IMG/VR virus record: IMGVR_UViG_3300041956_000050
Coordinates: 1-64,000 of that record
Length of the DNA stretch: 64,000 bases
DNA from: a virus
Strand: one strand, 5' to 3'
Below the pieces are notes generated by a model. It was not told where the DNA came from and searched no databases. It saw nothing but the letters and a program-made list of their open reading frames with translations. A program made the translations under genes and the position numbers. Positions 2,682 through 48,213 of this stretch are shown one piece after another (the first letter of the stretch is position 1; each line of letters opens with the position of its first letter).

Positions 2682-2797
2682 GCATGACAGACTGAGCAAA
2701 GGCCAGTCACATCAGCAAAGGCGATACTCATGCATACGACAACTAACACGACATCAGCAGGGCGAGGGTTCTGATAGGGCCTTCGCCCTGTCGTGTT
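2682..2797 (+). promoter_or_regulatory. Structured intergenic element: three-way junction plus terminator-like hairpin
   Basis: GCATGA/TCATGC closes two AGCAAAGGC hairpins. Next is hairpin CAGGGCGAGGGTTC/GGGCCTTCGCCCTG (2758-2790) followed by TCGTGTTTCTT. Confidence 0.6.
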
Positions 2798-2801
2798 TCT
2801 T

Positions 2802-3314
2802 ATGGCCAGAACCAAGTACGTAACCATCAAGCTTGAGGGAGAGGAGAAGATCTCGGCTGCTCTGCGCTCGCACGAAGAGCGTGGCTCGGCGCAGCTTCGA
2901 GAACTGGTTGATGATCTGGCCGATGTCGCGGGGATTGCGCTCATCGCGCACGTTCCTCGTGGCAGCAGTGACTACATCTTGGAGCATGTTGACCGAGATG
3001 GCCCGTTGTGGATGCCTGGTGGCGCAGGTGGCAGCGGTGAGTGGAAAGCCATCGTCGGCATCAAGAAGGGGCACAGCAGGCACCCGATCTACGTCGAGGA
3101 GGGCACCGGCATCTACGCCGGTCGCAGCGAGTGGGGCGGCAGGCCGATGCCGATGACCAAGGCGTTCCCCGAGTCCGATCCCGGTGGCCCTGCCTCCAAG
3201 ACCAAGTTCCGCCAGTACGTCAAGGGCCAGAGGCCGCAGAAGTACTTCTACATGACGTGGCGGACGCTCAACGCCGTCGTGGCAGCACGCATCGCAGCAC
3301 GGAAGATCCTGTAA
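2802..3314 (+). CDS. HK97 gp10-like tail completion protein
   Basis: Motifs HPIYVEEGTGIY and VKGQRPQKYF; lies in the tail module. Confidence 0.7.
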   Translation: MARTKYVTIKLEGEEKISAALRSHEERGSAQLRELVDDLADVAGIALIAHVPRGSSDYILEHVDRDGPLWMPGGAGGSGEWKAIVGIKKGHSRHPIYVEEGTGIYAGRSEWGGRPMPMTKAFPESDPGGPASKTKFRQYVKGQRPQKYFYMTWRTLNAVVAARIAARKIL

Positions 3315-17412: not shown

Positions 17413-19268
17413 CCGACATCACCACTCCTAGCCATACCCTTGTCGTCCGGCCTGACCGGATGGCGATGCTGACGGAGAAGGATCGCGTTACTGATCGCCT
17501 CGACCGGCTTGAGCGCGCGGCGGCAGGAGGTCTACTCGGCGGCGGCGGTGGCGGTGGCCTCGGTACTGAGATGGCGATGTCGCTCGGTGCAGGCTCTAAC
17601 GTTTCTGTCGCTAGTGCTTATACAAAGCTACCCGCCGGAGCAGTTACTAAGCAGTCTACTGATACGAGCGGTTTGCGCTACAACGCCGATGGCACGATCA
17701 CGATCCTCAAGGATGGCTGGTGGCAAGTTGGCGGGTCGATGCAGACTGCCAATATCACTACTGCTGCTGGATGGGTGTTCGCGATCTGGTACACGACGGA
17801 CGATACGGCACCAACGAATCCTAACCAGTTCTTGCTTTATCAAGAGGCGCAGAGCGGTGCCAATACGAATCGAGCCGAATCGATGTCGTTGCCGCTATGG
17901 CTGACAGCTAACACGCGCTTCGGTGCTGCTGCTTACAACCGAGGCACAGCGCTCAACTGCTCCTGCCAGAAGCTGGTGGCAGTGCGGCTTGCTACAGGGG
18001 CGACGGGAGCGCAAGGTGCGCAAGGGCCTTCCGGTGCAGCAGGCCCTACCGGCGCGGCTGGCGACCAGTGGTTCACAGGCACTGTCGCTCCATCAGCATC
18101 TGCTCCGTCTGGTGCCAAGATTGGCGACTACTACCTGAACACGACCAACGGGAACTACTACGAGAAGGTCGATGTAGCAGATCCCGGCGCATGGCTGCTG
18201 ATCGGAAATCTCAAGGGACCGCAGGGAGATCTTGGTCCGCCTGGCCCGCAGGGCACTCAGGGTCCGGCAGGCTCGGCAGGTGCGCGCTGGTATTCCGGTA
18301 CGGGAGCACCGTCGAGCGGCCTTGGTCTTATTGGCGACTGGTACTTGAATGACGCTAATGGCGACATATACGAGAAGACCGGGACAACAGCGTGGACGCT
18401 ACGCGACAACCTCACCGGCCCGCAGGGCATTCAAGGAACTCAGGGCATCCAAGGCATACAGGGGGTTCAGGGTCCGCAAGGTCCGACTGGCGCGACTGGC
18501 CAGGCCGAGGGGTGGCTGAGCGGCACTGGTATCCCCGGTGGTGCGACCGGCAATGTCGGTGACTGGTATCTGCGCACGACCAATAGTGATGTCTACGAGA
18601 AGACAAGCGCTGGTGCGTGGACGCTGCAAACCAACATCAAAGGTACGGCGGGCGAGAAGTGGTTCTCGGGTGCGTACAACCCGAACGGCTCCTTTTTGGT
18701 CGCCGCAATCGGTGACTGGTTCCTGCGCACGGATACCGGCGATGTCTACGAGTGTACTGACACCACTGGCGGCGGTGTTTGGGCGCTACGTGCCAACATC
18801 AAGGGATCGCAAGGCATTCAAGGGCCAACTGGTCCTTCAGGCGTTGCCGTGCAAGCGGCGGCTCCATCGTCTAGCTCGTATCAGGTGTGGGTGGACCCCG
18901 ATGAGCCGGACCCGGACCCGCTCACGGCTGAGGCCGTCCACCTGCTCAACACGGCAGGTGAGCCAGCACTAGCGACAAACTGGGCGTTGTACGCAGCGGG
19001 TTGGCAGGCTCCCGGTTTCTACAAGGACAACCAGAGCCGCGTGTTCCTCCAGGGGATGATCAAGAAGACGATTGCCGTTGTCAATGGCGAGGTGTTGTTC
19101 ACTCTGCCGGTTGGCTATCGGCCGCTCGGCCAGAGCTTGTTCGTGGTTTACAGCAATAGTGCTGCTGCACGAATCGACGTGATGCCCAACGGCCAGGTGG
19201 TGGCCAGCACCGGCGTCAATGCTGCCTGGGTGTCGCTGGCCGGTATCAATTTCCGGGGTGAGCAGTGA
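17409..19268 (+). CDS. Collagen-like tail fibre
   Basis: Gly-X-Y tracts separated by four W[FYL][ST]G...IGDWYL...GDxYEK repeats; C-terminal LFTLPVGYRP domain. Confidence 0.85.
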   Translation: MTDITTPSHTLVVRPDRMAMLTEKDRVTDRLDRLERAAAGGLLGGGGGGGLGTEMAMSLGAGSNVSVASAYTKLPAGAVTKQSTDTSGLRYNADGTITILKDGWWQVGGSMQTANITTAAGWVFAIWYTTDDTAPTNPNQFLLYQEAQSGANTNRAESMSLPLWLTANTRFGAAAYNRGTALNCSCQKLVAVRLATGATGAQGAQGPSGAAGPTGAAGDQWFTGTVAPSASAPSGAKIGDYYLNTTNGNYYEKVDVADPGAWLLIGNLKGPQGDLGPPGPQGTQGPAGSAGARWYSGTGAPSSGLGLIGDWYLNDANGDIYEKTGTTAWTLRDNLTGPQGIQGTQGIQGIQGVQGPQGPTGATGQAEGWLSGTGIPGGATGNVGDWYLRTTNSDVYEKTSAGAWTLQTNIKGTAGEKWFSGAYNPNGSFLVAAIGDWFLRTDTGDVYECTDTTGGGVWALRANIKGSQGIQGPTGPSGVAVQAAAPSSSSYQVWVDPDEPDPDPLTAEAVHLLNTAGEPALATNWALYAAGWQAPGFYKDNQSRVFLQGMIKKTIAVVNGEVLFTLPVGYRPLGQSLFVVYSNSAAARIDVMPNGQVVASTGVNAAWVSLAGINFRGEQ

Positions 19269-23221: not shown

Positions 23222-23650
23222 GTGCCGCACGTCGTCCACACGATCCCGGTCAACGACCTGATCGAACACCTCACCAACGGTGAGGACTGCCCCTGCGGGC
23301 CGACGGTGAAGCCGCTCCAGCGTGAAGATGGCTCGATTGGCTACCAGTACCTGCATCACTCGCTCGACGGTCGCGAGTTCCGCGAGCACGAGTTGTCGAT
23401 CACGTGCCCGGTCTGCAAGATGACGAGCTACCACCCGAAGGACGTTGAGCACGGATACTGCGGCAACTGTCATGCGTTCACAAGAGGAGAGGTAAATGTC
23501 ATGACGGTTGATGAGACTCCAAGCGTCATGGAGCAGATCGCGACCAACAACTGGGAATGGTTGCCGTGGCCTGCCAAGGTTGTTGTCGTTGTGGTTCTGT
23601 TCCTGCTGGTAGTCGGCCTGTTGTGGTTGCTGATCTTCGGGGAAGTCTGA
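23222..23650 (+). CDS. Hypothetical protein with two Cys/His metal-binding modules and a C-terminal TM
   Basis: Leaderless GTG 7 nt after TGGTATCTT; motifs DCPCGP...HHSLDGRE and CPVC...YCGNC. Confidence 0.6.
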   Translation: MPHVVHTIPVNDLIEHLTNGEDCPCGPTVKPLQREDGSIGYQYLHHSLDGREFREHELSITCPVCKMTSYHPKDVEHGYCGNCHAFTRGEVNVMTVDETPSVMEQIATNNWEWLPWPAKVVVVVVLFLLVVGLLWLLIFGEV

Positions 23651-29270: not shown

Positions 29271-30545
29271 GTGGACATAGAGAGAGCGCTGCTGAGCAAA
29301 GCTCTCGCGACTGGAGAGCTTGCCGAACTGGTCGCTCGTGGTATCGAGTACGACCACTTCGCTGACGAGGATCTAGGCGACCTATACGACTGGGCCACTG
29401 ATGTCATGGCCAAGCACGTGCATCCGCCGTCGATGGCTGCCTCCCGCGAGGAGTTCCCTGACTTCAAACCATTGTTGACAAAGGACCCGCTGTCCTGGCA
29501 TATCGAGCGCTTCGTGCGCCGCGTCAAGGAGCGGATGGCTGTCGAACTGGTACGCAACTACCACGACCAGCTAGAAGACCCGAATGAGATCGATGAGATC
29601 GAGCTACGGGCGCTGGAGATGGCGCGACAGTTGACAGAGGTTGTGCCGTCACCGAAGGCTCGCCGCTTCTCCGAGGGCAAGGCGCGCAAGGAGGAGTACG
29701 AGCGGCGCAAGAAGAAGGACATCATTCATGGCATCCCGCTCGGCATCCCGACGTTCGACAAGCTGACGCTGGGCACGCAGCCGCACGAACTGGTGATTTG
29801 GGGTGGCCCACCTGGCGGCGGCAAGACCACCGGCCTCCAGTACTCCTCGATGCACGGTTACATGCATGGTGAGACGGTGCTGTTCGTCAGCCTGGAGGTT
29901 GAGGCAGAGCAGATCCTCCGGAAGTTCGACACAATGTTGACAAACATCCGCTACCACGCGCTCAAGGCGCTGGATCTGAACCCGGATGAGGAGGAGAAGT
30001 GGCACGAGATCCTTGAGCGTGCCGAGGAGGAGAAGGCGCACCGGGACATCATCATCGTTGACGATATCCGCAACTGCACCGTGGACAAGGTTGCCGCACA
30101 GCAGATCCGCTACAAGCCTGGCCTCGTCGTCGTTGACTACCTTGAGGAGATGCGCACACCGCGCAACGTGGCCGGTTGGGAGGGCGTGGCAGCCAATGGT
30201 CGCGGCCTCAAGCAGCAGGCGCGCACGACCCGCACGCCGTACATCACGGCCACTCAGCTAAACCGTGAGGGCGAGACGGCGTATCAGAGCGCGCAGAAGA
30301 TTGCGGACATGCTCATAGTGTTGGTGCCTCCGGACGAGGACGACGAAGATCCGACGACGATGAAGCTGCTGCTGCGCAAGTACCGCGACGGCCCGTCCCG
30401 CAAGACCGTCAACATGCACTGGGATCTCAACATCATGGACATCCATGAGGCGGATGCTACGACCAACGGGCGCTTCGCTCCGCGCAAGCTCGGGGATCTC
30501 AAGAAGCAGAAGATCAACCCCTGGACGGCGAAGGCCGGACGATGA
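29271..30545 (+). CDS. dnaB: DnaB-like replicative helicase
   Basis: Motifs GPPGGGKT, FVSLE, VVDYL, TQLNR and KYRDG. Confidence 0.92.
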   Translation: MDIERALLSKALATGELAELVARGIEYDHFADEDLGDLYDWATDVMAKHVHPPSMAASREEFPDFKPLLTKDPLSWHIERFVRRVKERMAVELVRNYHDQLEDPNEIDEIELRALEMARQLTEVVPSPKARRFSEGKARKEEYERRKKKDIIHGIPLGIPTFDKLTLGTQPHELVIWGGPPGGGKTTGLQYSSMHGYMHGETVLFVSLEVEAEQILRKFDTMLTNIRYHALKALDLNPDEEEKWHEILERAEEEKAHRDIIIVDDIRNCTVDKVAAQQIRYKPGLVVVDYLEEMRTPRNVAGWEGVAANGRGLKQQARTTRTPYITATQLNREGETAYQSAQKIADMLIVLVPPDEDDEDPTTMKLLLRKYRDGPSRKTVNMHWDLNIMDIHEADATTNGRFAPRKLGDLKKQKINPWTAKAGR

Positions 30546-30549
30546 CCAA

Positions 30550-30620
30550 GCCCGCTAGCACGAAGGTGTGTGCCTCCCCGTTGCTGGGGAGGAGGCAGGA
30601 TTCGATCTCCTGAGCGGGCA
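30550..30620 (+). tRNA. Non-canonical tRNA-like cloverleaf (identity undetermined)
   Basis: Acceptor GCCCGCT/AGCGGGC+A; D-arm GCAC-GAAGGTGT-GTGC; anticodon arm CTCCCC-GTTGCT-GGGGAG; T-arm CAGGA-TTCGATC-TCCTG. Confidence 0.6.
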
Positions 30621-30625
30621 TTGCA

Positions 30626-31405
30626 ATGACTATTTACGTCGATCAGTTTCCTGAGGGTTGGGGCCGCTGGACAGGCGGTGGGCACATGCTCGGCACCGAC
30701 CTTGACGAGCTACACGCCATGGCGGCGCACCTGGGCCTTCGTCTAGCTTGGTTTCAGGACAAGACGTTCGCGCACTACGATCTGACGCGCAGCAAGCGCG
30801 ACAAGGCACTGGCAGCCGGTGCGGTGGCAATTGACTTCTACGATGAGCGCATCCCCGATGGTGTGCTGATGAAGAATGGCGACGGCACTTACGAGACGCA
30901 CGGAGAGAGAATGGCGAGAAGGAATCCGGAGACTTGGTTCACGAAGAGGGAAGGCGGAAAGACAGTTCACAATTGGCCGTCCAACTTCTTCATCGAGCCG
31001 GACGGGACGGATGTCGAGCACGAGTATCAGGCTGAGAAGCATCGCGGCCATCCGTGGCGCGTGAAGACGATCATGTGCGCTCGCACTCCCGGCCAGGCGA
31101 AGCGGCTGGGACGGCGCTGGAAGCTCAACCGCTACCAGAAGATGGAATGGGACAACCGCCGCAATCAGGCGATGTACGAGTTGGTCCGGCGCAAGATCGA
31201 GGACCATCCGGAGATCGCCTTCGCTCTTGTCTGCACTGATGACGAGGTTTTGGTCGAGAAGAACTGGTGGCACGACAACTACTGGGGCGACTGTACTTGT
31301 CTCCAGTGTTTCCGTACTGGCGAGAACATTCTCGGCTACATCCTGATGGCGATCCGCGACGAGTTCAATGCCACGTTCTCTGAGCAAAACGCTCGCGCGG
31401 CTTGA
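30626..31405 (+). CDS. DUF4031-like domain fused to a NADAR (YbiA-like) domain
   Basis: N-terminal IYVD...HM..DLDELHAMA...WFQ...HYDL; C-terminal SNF...VEHEYQAEK...AKRLGR...LVE...DNYWG...GENILGYILMAIR. Confidence 0.85.
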   Translation: MTIYVDQFPEGWGRWTGGGHMLGTDLDELHAMAAHLGLRLAWFQDKTFAHYDLTRSKRDKALAAGAVAIDFYDERIPDGVLMKNGDGTYETHGERMARRNPETWFTKREGGKTVHNWPSNFFIEPDGTDVEHEYQAEKHRGHPWRVKTIMCARTPGQAKRLGRRWKLNRYQKMEWDNRRNQAMYELVRRKIEDHPEIAFALVCTDDEVLVEKNWWHDNYWGDCTCLQCFRTGENILGYILMAIRDEFNATFSEQNARAA

Positions 31406-32525
31406 GCGCGGTGGTGGGCGCAAGCGGAAGGACTCGTTCAACCGCTGGCGTCAACACATCAACGTTATTGACTTCCTAGAGAACCTGAACATCGCCAACA
31501 TCAGCCAGGCGACGGCCGATGAGGTGCAGTTCTCGTGCCCGTTCCCCGACCACACGCACGGCGATGAGACGCCGAGCGCATCGATGAACGACGGCACCAA
31601 GGACCCGATGCTGACGAGCGCGTGGACGTGCTACGGCTGCAAACGTGGCGGCAATGCTGTCACCTTTCTGTCCGACTACGAGAACATCAGCAATCAGGAA
31701 GCCAAGAAGATCCTCAAGGCCCATTATGCGCGCGGGTTCATCTCCCCGAAGTACGGCTCGATCAGCCGCGAGTTCGAGACGCGCTATAAGGCGTCCAAGG
31801 AACGCCACATACCGCAAACACTGTTGGCGATTGAATGGAGCTTGGCCGAGCAATTCGAGGTCGAGTGGAGTCATTACGCCGAAAACTACCGGGATTCTCC
31901 CGATGTTGCCTTCATGCTTGACAGAGGCTTTTCCCCTGCTGTGCTGGAGGAATGGGGAATCGGCTACGACGACAGTTCTCAGCGCATCACGATCCCCGTC
32001 TGCGACCCGCACGGCAACCTCGTGGGGTTCAAGGGGCGCGCGTGGAGGAAGCACGCCAGGCCGAAGTACCTCGTCATGGGCAACAAGGGTGAGCGCAAGC
32101 GCTACGACTTCAACGTCTATGACAAGTCGCTTGTCGTCTTTGGCCTGGATCGGTGGGGCGAAGTAGATCGCTACGTGTTGGTCGAGGGCGAGCTAGACGT
32201 GATCGCGCTGTGGTGCATGGACATCCCGGCGATCTCCTGCGGCGGCAGCACCATGAGCGTGGAGCAGGCCAAGCTGATCCGGCAGTATTGCGACGAGGTG
32301 GTCCTGTTTTTTGACAACGATGCTGCCGGGAAGATCGGAGTCTACGGGCGCGAGGACAAGCACGGCGAGCACCACCCTGGAATCCTCGAACTGCTGGAGC
32401 CGCACCTGCGCGTCCGTGTCGTCGGCAAACACCGCTACGACGCCAACGACTACCTGCGGCGCGGTGAGCAGGCTCGGTGCCGTGATCTGATCGCTAGCGC
32501 AAAGTCCAGCCATGCGCTAGTATGA
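31368..32525 (+). CDS. dnaG: DnaG-type DNA primase
   Basis: Zinc finger CPFPDH..DETPS..CYGC; motifs GFKGR and PKYL; TOPRIM LVEGELD...FDNDAAG. Confidence 0.92.
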   Translation: MPRSLSKTLARLERGGGRKRKDSFNRWRQHINVIDFLENLNIANISQATADEVQFSCPFPDHTHGDETPSASMNDGTKDPMLTSAWTCYGCKRGGNAVTFLSDYENISNQEAKKILKAHYARGFISPKYGSISREFETRYKASKERHIPQTLLAIEWSLAEQFEVEWSHYAENYRDSPDVAFMLDRGFSPAVLEEWGIGYDDSSQRITIPVCDPHGNLVGFKGRAWRKHARPKYLVMGNKGERKRYDFNVYDKSLVVFGLDRWGEVDRYVLVEGELDVIALWCMDIPAISCGGSTMSVEQAKLIRQYCDEVVLFFDNDAAGKIGVYGREDKHGEHHPGILELLEPHLRVRVVGKHRYDANDYLRRGEQARCRDLIASAKSSHALV

Positions 32526-45758: not shown

Positions 45759-46451
45759 ATGGGTGGCACAGATATCGCCAGGGCTGACGAAGTTGGCCTC
45801 ACAGACCGCCAGATAGGCGCGCTGGGCCGATTGCACCGGCTCGGAGCTAAGCCTCGCATCGAGGGCGAGGTGTACGACTCAGACCCGCAGATTCGCGCTC
45901 TGCAACTGGTCTACGAGGGCAAGATGGGTGGCAAGGGCCTGGGGCAAGGTCGGCCTCGAACCGGCGTGGATCGCAAGGCTCGCGCGGCTGAGGTGATTGC
46001 GGCTGAGATCCGCGAGCGCTTTACCGGCAGGATGATCAGGGCTATTGACAGAGCCTTGAAGAAGGACGCCGGAACCCGCGCTAATCTTGATGCAGTGAAG
46101 CTGGCGCTCGACATCGAGAACCGCGAGGCAGCGCTGGCACTGAAGGAATACGAGGCCGAGTTCGACACCGCCACAAAGGAGCAGCTAATTGCCACCCTCT
46201 TCGAGCTTGTCGCGGAACCGCAGACAGCGGCAGCTATCGAAGGAACAGCCTGGGACATCACAGACGCGGAGGTCGTTGAAGATCCATCCGCTTCTGGAGA
46301 GAGTGGGGGTAACGGAAGTGCCCCCAGTGTTGGCAGCAATGGGGATCACTCCGGAGACTCTGGATCAGTTAGAGCCGTCCGACTTGCGCGACATCGTAAG
46401 CAGAGTGAAAACCCTTTCACGAAGGCTGCAATACGAAGGGCCGAGCAATGA
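45759..46451 (+). CDS. Probable terminase small subunit
   Basis: Directly upstream of and overlapping TerL; motifs GRP and ITDAEVVE. Confidence 0.55.
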   Translation: MGGTDIARADEVGLTDRQIGALGRLHRLGAKPRIEGEVYDSDPQIRALQLVYEGKMGGKGLGQGRPRTGVDRKARAAEVIAAEIRERFTGRMIRAIDRALKKDAGTRANLDAVKLALDIENREAALALKEYEAEFDTATKEQLIATLFELVAEPQTAAAIEGTAWDITDAEVVEDPSASGESGGNGSAPSVGSNGDHSGDSGSVRAVRLARHRKQSENPFTKAAIRRAEQ

Positions 46452-48213
46452 CGATGAGCTTCACGCCTGGATCAAGAAGAACATCGGTGTTGACATCCCT
46501 CGTGAGCCGGTCTGTGAAGATCACGTAGCACCCTTTCAGTTCCTGGCAGATCTCTTCTTCGAGCGCGTGCCCTCGGCGCTTGCGCTGGCGAATCGTGGTG
46601 GCTCCAAGACTTTCATCGTCGCGCTGCTCCACTACCTCAACTGCACGTACAAGGCCGGATGCGGCTGCCTGACCTTCGGGGCGACGGAGGCTCAGGGCAA
46701 TCGCTGTTATGGCAATATTGAGGACTGGTGCTACGTCCACGACGAAGATACTGGCAGGCGTACTGACACAGTTCTGCCGTTCATCAGGGAAAAGCCGAAG
46801 AAGTCACAGACGGTGTGGAAGACCGGCTCGGTGGTCGAGGTCGTGGCCGGGTCTGAGAATGCCGTCTCTGGCCCGCACCCGGCGAAGGCGCATGCCGACG
46901 AGATTGATCAGATGGAACGGCCGGTGTGGAACCAGAGCCGTGGTATGGCCGTCACTAATCGTGCCACTGGGCCGTTGCCGCTGTGGATGCAGAAGTACGA
47001 GGGAATGATCCCGCCGCAGGACATCGCTACGAGCACGCGCAACTCGACCAAGGGGCTGATGCAGGAGCTTCTGGATGAGATCGAGCAAGATGTCAAGGAT
47101 GGAAACATCGCACAGTTTGCGCTCTACACGTGGTGCATTTGGGAGACGATCAAGGAAGTCCCGAACTGCCGCTGTGTTGACAAGCGCCTGCGGCGGAAGC
47201 GCCTCAAGCAACTCGACATGGATGTTGACTCCCTCTGCGAGTGCAACCGCGTTGTGAAGGGCCGTTTGCCAAGTGGCAAGCCGAGGACCCTGGAGTCCAT
47301 CTGTAAGGGCAAGGCGTTCCGCTCGCGCGGCTGGAAGCCGTATGTAGATCTCGTGATGACGTTCAAGCGCAACACTCCTGGCACGTGGACGTTGCAGCAT
47401 GAGTGCCGCCACGGCATTGACGAGAACAACTACATCCAAGACTGGTCGCTGAACCTGTACGGCATCCGCCACTACGAGCCGCATCCGATGTACGGGCCGA
47501 TCTACCGGGGCGTTGACTGGGGATCGACGCACCCGGCCTGTGTGCTCTACTTCCAGTACCTGACAGCAGAGGTGCCAGCACTCGGGTTCGACTACGAGCC
47601 GATCTGGCTGGAGTCCGGGATCTATGTGCTGTTCCACGAGATCTACATCGCGGGCAGCGACAGCCAGACGCTCGCCAAGCGTGTCGTCATGGTTGACGAG
47701 CAGTACCGCAAGGAGTACGGCGGCGCTTGGAAGGTCAAGGCTACGTTCTGTGACCCGCAGGGAGCCGGTGACCGGATCATCTTCAACAATCACGGCATCC
47801 CTTCCATCTGGCCCGTCAAGACGCGCAACAAGATCCGCTTCATCGAGACAGTGCAGAACCTCGTCATTGATGACAAGTTCGCCGTCGATGTCGATGCCGC
47901 TCCGATGTTCTGCGAAGAGGTCGAGGGCTGGCAGAAGGACCCACGTACTGGCAAGGAGCTTGACAAGTACAACCACGCGATGGCGGCATGGCGCTACGGC
48001 ATCTCCAACGCCGAAGTGATCGAGAGCCACCGCAGCCAGAAGAAGAACAAGGCAGTCCAGTCCAATGGCGCACAGCCTCAGCGGCAGGCAGTAGTGAGCC
48101 GTCGCACACCGATGGCGGCTGAAGCTGGCGAGATCGTCTACGGTTCGATAGCATCGCGCGGAGGTTCGGCAGTTCCGCTCGACCCGCGCTTCACCCTCAA
48201 CGTGGACAAGTGA
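46276..48213 (+). CDS. terL: Terminase large subunit (start uncertain: TTG 46276 or ATG 46339)
   Basis: Walker A-like ANRGGSKT, Walker B AHADEID; nuclease motifs GVDWG..HP, CDP and NHAMAAWRY. Confidence 0.9.
   Translation: MKIHPLLERVGVTEVPPVLAAMGITPETLDQLEPSDLRDIVSRVKTLSRRLQYEGPSNDDELHAWIKKNIGVDIPREPVCEDHVAPFQFLADLFFERVPSALALANRGGSKTFIVALLHYLNCTYKAGCGCLTFGATEAQGNRCYGNIEDWCYVHDEDTGRRTDTVLPFIREKPKKSQTVWKTGSVVEVVAGSENAVSGPHPAKAHADEIDQMERPVWNQSRGMAVTNRATGPLPLWMQKYEGMIPPQDIATSTRNSTKGLMQELLDEIEQDVKDGNIAQFALYTWCIWETIKEVPNCRCVDKRLRRKRLKQLDMDVDSLCECNRVVKGRLPSGKPRTLESICKGKAFRSRGWKPYVDLVMTFKRNTPGTWTLQHECRHGIDENNYIQDWSLNLYGIRHYEPHPMYGPIYRGVDWGSTHPACVLYFQYLTAEVPALGFDYEPIWLESGIYVLFHEIYIAGSDSQTLAKRVVMVDEQYRKEYGGAWKVKATFCDPQGAGDRIIFNNHGIPSIWPVKTRNKIRFIETVQNLVIDDKFAVDVDAAPMFCEEVEGWQKDPRTGKELDKYNHAMAAWRYGISNAEVIESHRSQKKNKAVQSNGAQPQRQAVVSRRTPMAAEAGEIVYGSIASRGGSAVPLDPRFTLNVDK

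Follow-up and report, generated by a model that had tools for sequence, protein, structure and literature searches.

A short element with the outline of a tRNA lies between a dnaB-type helicase gene and a DUF4031-NADAR fusion gene in the genome of an uncultured soil-type phage, and the question that it raises is what a tRNA-shaped RNA may do at such a place if it cannot decode. The phage, of ~108 kb, is represented by the IMG/VR virus record IMGVR_UViG_3300041956_000050 (108,063 bp; G+C 60.8%; completeness 96% according to CheckV). The window referred to below is the whole stretch of DNA that was analysed, namely positions 1-64,000 of this record. A first-pass annotation had drawn attention to the element and proposed three functions for it, i.e. 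a decoy for anticodon nucleases, a frameshift tRNA or a signal for RNA processing. Our analysis partly supports that first reading as a whole.

The element and its surroundings

The element sits in an 80-nt gap on the coding strand, starting 4 nt after the stop codon of dnaB and ending 5 nt before the ATG of the fusion gene. The features of this neighborhood are as follows.

29271..30545, + strand: dnaB-type replicative helicase, 424 aa (Pfam DnaB_C, E=5e-25), with its TGA stop at 30543-30545
30546..30549, + strand: 4-nt spacer CCAA from the dnaB stop to the 5' end of the tRNA-like RNA, as read in the sequence
30550..30620, + strand: 71-nt tRNA-like cloverleaf, predicted to be non-decoding (acceptor, D arm, closed anticodon hairpin, T arm, discriminator A)
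30621..30625, + strand: 5-nt spacer TTGCA from the discriminator to the start codon, without CCA, as read in the sequence
30626..31405, + strand: DUF4031-NADAR fusion gene, 259 aa (Pfam PF13223, E=5e-15; PF08719, E=6e-19)
30911..30913, + strand: in-frame ATG inside the fusion gene, with GGAG at 30902-30905, aligning with the start of NADAR-only relatives
31368..32525, + strand: DnaG-type primase, the next gene in the operon (Pfam Toprim_2, DNAG_N, Zn_ribbon_DnaG)

Within the fusion protein of 259 aa, Pfam assigns residues 3-71 to DUF4031 and residues 130-247 to NADAR. The element itself can be divided as follows.

30550-30556 with 30613-30619, + strand: acceptor stem, 7 bp
30557, + strand: A, linker base between the acceptor and D stems
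30558-30561 with 30570-30573, + strand: D stem, 4 bp; the D loop has 8 nt and contains GG
30575-30579 with 30586-30590, + strand: anticodon stem, 5 bp, with a 6-nt loop at 30580-30585
30574..30591, + strand: the "anticodon" arm read as a 7-bp hairpin (30574-30580 with 30585-30591, innermost pair G-U), with a UUGC cap at 30581-30584
between the anticodon and T stems, + strand: variable region, 5 nt
30596..30612, + strand: T arm, with a 5-bp stem (30596-30600 with 30608-30612) and the loop TTCGATC at 30601-30607
30620, + strand: discriminator A, followed by TTGCA and then by the ATG at 30626

All 21 stem pairs of the acceptor (7 bp), D, anticodon and T arms are Watson-Crick pairs, and the cloverleaf is the minimum-energy fold according to RNAfold (-38.7 kcal/mol, z = -3.8, with none of 200 shuffles as stable). 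The initial description of four fully paired arms with a D-loop GG and a TTCGA T loop is thus borne out, and the 6-nt anticodon loop, the A-T pair closing the T loop and the missing CCA can all be read in the sequence. The same description had a single base linking the acceptor and D stems, which holds in the main register (A 30557) but not in an alternative one with A8 and G9, in which the D stem is CACG/UGUG and its loop has 8 nt. It also placed the end of the RNA 5 nt before the ATG, which is correct, and at 30626, which is not, as this position is the A of the ATG and the shape ends at 30620. Concerning the anticodon arm, the minimum-energy fold contains seven Watson-Crick pairs (30573-30579 with 30586-30592); the hairpin register listed above drops the outermost of these and adds the innermost G-U so that it matches the columns aligned with the second copy described below.

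The features expected of a decoding tRNA are found only in part. The core nucleotides GG (G18 G19), TTC and A58 are present, while position 8 is A instead of U and the 53-61 pair closing the T loop is A-T in place of G53-C61, a near-universal tRNA pair. The loop offers no U33 and no purine at position 37. With a loop of 6 nt, or of 8 nt with G33 and U37, that can be closed to a UUGC tetraloop, the 71-nt element is, to judge from its sequence, incapable of decoding.

The tRNA detectors are in line with this mixed picture. With default settings ARAGORN reported no tRNA in the window or in the 108-kb genome, and no tmRNA in the window, while at a 95% threshold the element was the only match in the genome, with a score of 98.1 and the call tRNA-?(Gln|Ala) with a 6-base loop; a pseudo or undetermined call of this sort had been anticipated in the first-pass annotation. 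In 60 dinucleotide shuffles of the genome, four ARAGORN matches reached 98.1 or more, i.e. ~0.07 per genome, an expectation calculated before allowing for the location of the element in one of few gaps and on the coding strand. The Rfam tRNA model RF00005, which has a curated threshold of 29 bits, was run at E<=10 on stretches of 401 and 91 nt and on the whole genome, and matched none of them. The full set of Rfam families, including YrlA, gave no match at gathering score genome-wide and none of relevance at E<=10. When a covariance model (R1) is made from the element alone, on the other hand, it retrieves genuine phage tRNAs with up to 37.7 bits. Since R1 finds real tRNAs while the decoding positions fail, the element is tRNA-shaped and yet devoid of decoding features. 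Two weak R1 matches, at 19184-19264 (within a 619-aa ORF) and 23250-23308, were rejected as spurious, as they show neither a tRNA-like fold nor a fold better than that of shuffled sequence.

With regard to translation signals, the ATG at 30626 was rightly described as lacking a Shine-Dalgarno sequence, since no GGAG, GAGG or AGGA occurs at -20..-4. This is weak evidence, because such a 4-mer was found for just 23 of 61 genes, with crude start calls. The internal ATG at 30911-30913 is preceded at 5 nt by GGAG, a good Shine-Dalgarno-like site, and may be a second start of the DUF4031-NADAR gene. The NADAR relatives encode NADAR alone, starting at a Met that aligns with the 30911 ATG. The ancestral NADAR start has been kept in frame together with GGAG, so that both the fused protein and a NADAR-only protein could be made.

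A few further observations concern the sequence around the element and the record as a whole. A 23-codon ORF at 30542-30613 starts with an ATG overlapping the dnaB stop (ATGA), crosses the tRNA-like element and stops in the T stem; it is probably meaningless, and its start-stop overlap echoes the TGATG coupling seen in relatives. The ORFs at the two ends of the record, 111-815 and 106801-107502 (the latter outside the window), match one and the same gene of a related complete genome, G001, with 48-50% identity, and the record may carry a terminal repeat or an assembly overlap unflagged by IMG/VR. On the minus strand at ~88,900-88,970 (~88.93 kb, also outside the window) hammerhead core words (CUGAGGA / GAAAC) occur with a GGCC...GGCC stem between them. 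Rfam gave no hammerhead match there at gathering score or at E<=5.

Relatives and a second copy

The DnaB protein of the window shares 57-87% identity with that of related phage contigs, and the junction between dnaB and NADAR could be compared in seven of them.

L030 and L031 (DnaB 83-87%): the dnaB TGA overlaps the NADAR ATG (TGATG), with nothing between
L002, which is G001 (DnaB 62%): dnaB and NADAR overlap, with nothing between
L029 (DnaB 86%): two small unrelated ORFs between (2731-3245), one of them Cys-rich
L245 (DnaB 68%): ~730 nt of other sequence between dnaB and NADAR
L246 and L247 (DnaB 57%): at most ~330-390 nt of other sequence between, an upper bound, as the DnaB match ends ~30 residues before the C-terminus

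No tRNA was found at the junction in L002, L029, L030, L031 or L245-L247. The first-pass annotation had singled out a canonical tRNA at this site in relatives as the finding that would speak against it; neither that nor its converse was encountered, the relatives having no tRNA of any kind there. Since dnaB abuts NADAR in three lineages, direct abutment is likely to be ancestral and the junction appears to be a cargo slot. Together with the absence of a tRNA at the site in relatives, this makes the element plus DUF4031 look like an inserted cassette; the slot of the window holds the tRNA-like element and a DUF4031 frame that runs stop-free into NADAR. Among the relatives this junction changes fast and is a hot spot of small cargo.

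The distribution of the element is narrow. It was absent anywhere in seven further members of the phage group (G007-G013), the complete genome G010 among them, and must therefore be dispensable. One of these phages, G012, carries true tRNAs (Glu, Met, Lys). Searches of cultured phages with megablast and blastn revealed no closer relative with this junction, and an exact 43-nt pattern had no match in IMG/VR. Protein-guided scans of IMG/VR and JGI metagenomes returned dnaB/NADAR relatives, none of which carried the element or the DUF4031 fusion. The sole other DUF4031-NADAR fusion found was P0002, with 69% identity, encoded on a JGI/Logan contig of 9,373 bp.

As for the origin of the two parts of the cassette, the nearest relatives of DUF4031 were found in Solirubrobacterales MAGs (60-63% identity). 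No tRNA lies beside DUF4031 in T4-like Klebsiella phages, a Xanthomonas phage, an IMG/VR contig or the Solirubrobacterales MAGs. Since DUF4031 genes elsewhere have no adjoining tRNA, the element and DUF4031 are considered separate modules. No similar or donor tRNA was detected in four Solirubrobacterales MAGs, in cultured phages or in 201 genomes of the phylum to which G002, the Solirubrobacterales MAG with the nearest DUF4031, belongs; one of the 201 genomes (G133) gave a short match at chance level only. The AlphaFold model of DUF4031 (pLDDT 57) was too poor for a structure search, no relative of the domain was found in the PDB, and the literature searched gave a passing mention only.

A single look-alike of the element was found, in G001, a complete 112-kb genome with terminal repeats that is collinear with the window genome. 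The proteins of G001 mostly share 30-65% identity with those of the window genome, and the major capsid protein shares 81%. The G001 copy (83623-83696, minus strand) belongs to an accessory region without a counterpart in the window genome, and the two copies occupy non-syntenic loci. A stop codon precedes the G001 copy by 5 nt, and 2 nt separate its end from the ATG of a basic ORF of 66 aa. The two copies agree in 6/7 and 7/8 acceptor bases, in 14/17 bases of the T arm and in the discriminator A. In the upper half (acceptor and T arm) 27 of 32 bases are identical and the remainder is compensated. RF00005 scores the G001 copy at 15.8 bits, and the ARAGORN call for it, "Gln", requires a shifted register that contains mismatches.

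R1 matches the G001 copy at 29.7 bits and does not match the three true tRNAs of G012. Judging specific homology by this score was nevertheless rejected, as R1 gives at least equal scores to real tRNAs whose acceptor is the same. The acceptor sequence of the element also occurs in genuine phage tRNAs for Arg, Thr, Val, Leu and Lys. Because such tRNAs equal the R1 score, the case for homology is based on the shared phage group, the identity of the top half and the shared loop, and the homology of the two copies is not proven. In pattern searches of IMG/VR, the acceptor plus TTCGA pattern retrieved G001, ordinary tRNAs (Leu, Thr, Val, Arg, Lys) and a few matches that could not be folded. The UUGC plus T arm pattern retrieved mostly tRNA-Ala(UGC), which says nothing of origin because this tRNA is expected by construction.

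Covariation was assessed on an R1-guided alignment of the two sequences (A6), with a structure consisting of the acceptor, the 7-bp "anticodon" hairpin and the T arm. Each of the 19 comparable pairs is standard in both copies; six changed on both sides, none on one side only, and none was broken, while controls with slid pairing gave at most one double change. The acceptor pair 7-66 is U-A in the window and C-G in G001, and the T-stem pair 53-61 is A-U in the window and G-C in G001, the change being compensated. In the hairpin, both partners differ in four of the seven pairs, and the loop is the same. In both copies the anticodon arm closes to a hairpin of 7-8 bp with a UUGC cap, the pair flanking UUGC being G-U in the window and U-A in G001. 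The combination of intact pairing and broken decoding features had been taken at first as a sign of selection on shape. The compensated pairs and the shared UUGC hairpin favor this view, and the comparison comprises two copies only. It is thus suggestive that the shape, including the closed and apparently non-decoding arm, has been maintained, with the structure derived from the same two sequences.

Other tRNA-shaped RNAs were noted in the course of these searches. The plus strand of G001 carries two more, at 45868-45946 and 47004-47074 (L125:365-443 and L125:1501-1571), both with a 7-bp acceptor, a TTCGA/TTCAA T arm and irregular middle parts. One of them scores 28 bits on RF00005 and has a 7-bp anticodon arm with a 5-nt loop, and the other scores 16 bits on R1; neither has a counterpart in the window genome. 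In an unrelated phage contig (IMGVR_UViG_2862207470_000004), ARAGORN called a tRNA-???(cc) with a 6-base anticodon loop at L150:2695-2769. Its acceptor is that of the G001 copy and differs by one base from that of the window element, and it may be another non-decoding tRNA look-alike.

A proposed processing signal and its rivals

Among the three functions proposed at first, that of a processing signal appears to fit best, because both copies fill a gap between a stop codon and an ATG (+4/-5 and +5/-2 nt) and no promoter-like or terminator-like site was found near the tRNA-like element. We tentatively favor the reading that the element is a non-decoding tRNA-like processing signal, akin to the t-elements of plant mitochondria, while recognizing that it is far from certain. 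It would be a tRNA-derived RNA that has lost decoding and retained the parts read by tRNA-processing enzymes, namely the stacked helix of acceptor and T arm, and the T loop and D-loop GG that form the elbow. Presumably transcribed within a dnaB - DUF4031/NADAR - primase message, it would be cut by host RNase P at its 5' end, after 30549 and 4 nt past the dnaB stop, and by a 3' tRNA-trimming enzyme such as RNase Z after the discriminator. A stable RNA of ~71 nt would be released, the helicase message would be split from the downstream message, and the DUF4031-NADAR message would be left with a leader of 5 nt, possibly with an effect on its translation or stability. Such a message would not be truly leaderless. 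As in t-elements, a predicted non-decoding fold with an intact acceptor/T-arm half is located at the border of a coding region.

The main rival is a tRNA gene in decay, which would have come with or beside the DUF4031 cassette, would be functionless now, and would still be paired either through its youth or through the slow breaking of GC-rich stems. A sporadic element that is missing from the junction in seven contigs and from all of G007-G013, that fails both RF00005 and default ARAGORN, and that sits in a fast-changing cargo slot is much what this explanation would predict, and the true tRNAs of G012 indicate that the group has had tRNA genes. The pattern of defects speaks against it, as every one of them affects a position used for decoding or identity and the stems are free of defects. 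Moreover, G53-C61 has been replaced by a compensated A-T, all six pairs that vary relative to G001 are compensated, and both copies share a feature foreign to tRNAs, the closed hairpin with its UUGC cap; nor did a donor tRNA turn up in the 201 phylum genomes, the four Solirubrobacterales MAGs or cultured phages. On balance we consider decay rather unlikely, although it is the alternative to be taken most seriously.

A different possibility is that the ~71-nt RNA is itself the product, acting as a stable mimic that binds or titrates a host factor that recognizes the tRNA upper half; candidates would be a toxin or defence sensor directed at the acceptor, the CCA-adding enzyme or EF-Tu. The half that such a factor would read is the conserved one (27/32 bases identical to G001 and the rest compensated), and G001 possesses two further tRNA-shaped RNAs without proper anticodon loops. 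The adjoining gene contains NADAR, a domain tied to counter-defence and possibly to RNA repair (PMC9503650), but the relatives carry NADAR without the element, so this link is not conserved. No partner can be named either, and the genome does not encode a CCA-adding enzyme. The mimic would be compatible with processing. The decoy idea put forward at first would apply to it, though not for anticodon nucleases: neither copy has an open 7-nt anticodon loop, and with a closed loop the RNA cannot mimic the target of these enzymes, which weakens the decoy in its original form. We regard the mimic as improbable.

Still less can be said for a chance fold or a remnant attachment site, which we consider disfavored and very improbable. 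Phage attachment sites often contain pieces of tRNA, and ~0.07 ARAGORN matches of such a score are expected per shuffled genome. Chance does not readily account for a position in an 80-nt gap on the coding strand, for a model that finds real tRNAs or for a look-alike in a relative. An attachment site would be expected to keep the 3' half rather than a whole cloverleaf; no match to the tyrosine integrase family PF00589 was found in the genome, and no similar host tRNA in the genomes searched.

Finally, a working +1 frameshift tRNA, in which the central UUGC of an 8-nt loop would read the four-base codon GCAA, can hardly be credited: although UUGC is central to such a possible loop in both copies and has in G001 the flanking bases of known frameshift suppressor tRNAs, U33 and A37, the window copy has G33 and U37, both wrong for decoding, these flanks pair and covary (G-U in the window, U-A in G001) in a manner that points to a stem, U8 and G53-C61 are missing, and nothing examined requires a frameshift. 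The adjoining fusion is a single open frame, and the neighboring genes need no frameshift. Beyond these neighbors the check covered one overlapping ORF pair, upstream of the portal gene and without a Pfam match, for which an over-extended upstream start of the second ORF is a sufficient explanation. The suggestion of a frameshift tRNA has thus lost ground.

Known tRNA-like systems and wider meaning

The processing-signal reading has its closest parallel in organelles. In plant mitochondria, the ends of mRNAs are set at t-elements by RNase P and RNase Z (Forner et al. 2007, PMC1920247). Like t-elements and the tRNA punctuation of mitochondria, the element of the window is a predicted non-decoding tRNA-like structure at the border of a coding message, of a kind presumed to be a substrate of RNase P and/or RNase Z. 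T-elements are, however, organellar and their mRNA ends have been mapped, whereas the window element belongs to a bacterial virus and its RNA ends are predicted. It also differs from them in being a complete four-arm cloverleaf with a sequence-conserved, UUGC-capped hairpin in place of the anticodon arm.

In bacteria, RNase P is known to cut phage M3 RNA, the precursor of the P1/P7 C4 antisense RNA and polycistronic operon mRNAs (PMC11143913). The likeness to these non-tRNA substrates is that phage or operon transcripts are cut since part of them mimics a pre-tRNA. M3 and C4 are, however, regulatory or stable RNAs with partial tRNA likeness only, and for none of these substrates is a complete cloverleaf reported that separates two genes of a replication operon.

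Ordinary phage tRNAs (RF00005) share with the element the four arms, the 7-bp acceptor, the D-loop GG, TTCGA, the discriminator A and the lack of an encoded CCA. The window element differs from them in having no 7-nt anticodon loop, U33, purine 37, U8 or G53-C61. Non-decoding RNAs with tRNA-like modules are also represented by rnaC and rnaD of phage T4 and by the YrlA-type Y RNAs, YrlA being an Rfam family. These RNAs are larger than the window element and have extra domains, and YrlA gave no Rfam match to it. In the literature searched, no description of tRNA-like punctuation in phages was found, which does not prove that none exists.

Possibly, though with considerable doubt, this group of phages possesses a non-decoding tRNA module that is portable, the upper half of a tRNA being joined in it to a closed UUGC-capped hairpin. 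The module would mark the 5' border of accessory genes that have been newly acquired, and host RNase P and RNase Z would cut these genes out of the operon transcript. If true, this would be the counterpart, in a bacterial virus, of mitochondrial tRNA punctuation. The element is small and open to testing, as it offers an RNA of 71 nt with two predicted sites of cleavage, and the relatives without it provide a natural comparison. Even if it is only a decaying tRNA gene, it documents the quick turnover of cargo at the helicase/NADAR junction. If such look-alikes are indeed cutting signals, phage operons would be divided after transcription by the tRNA machinery of the host. The way in which phage genomes are read for gene expression, mRNA stability and the choice of start sites would then change, and the recurrent "pseudo-tRNA" calls that annotation pipelines drop would be explained.
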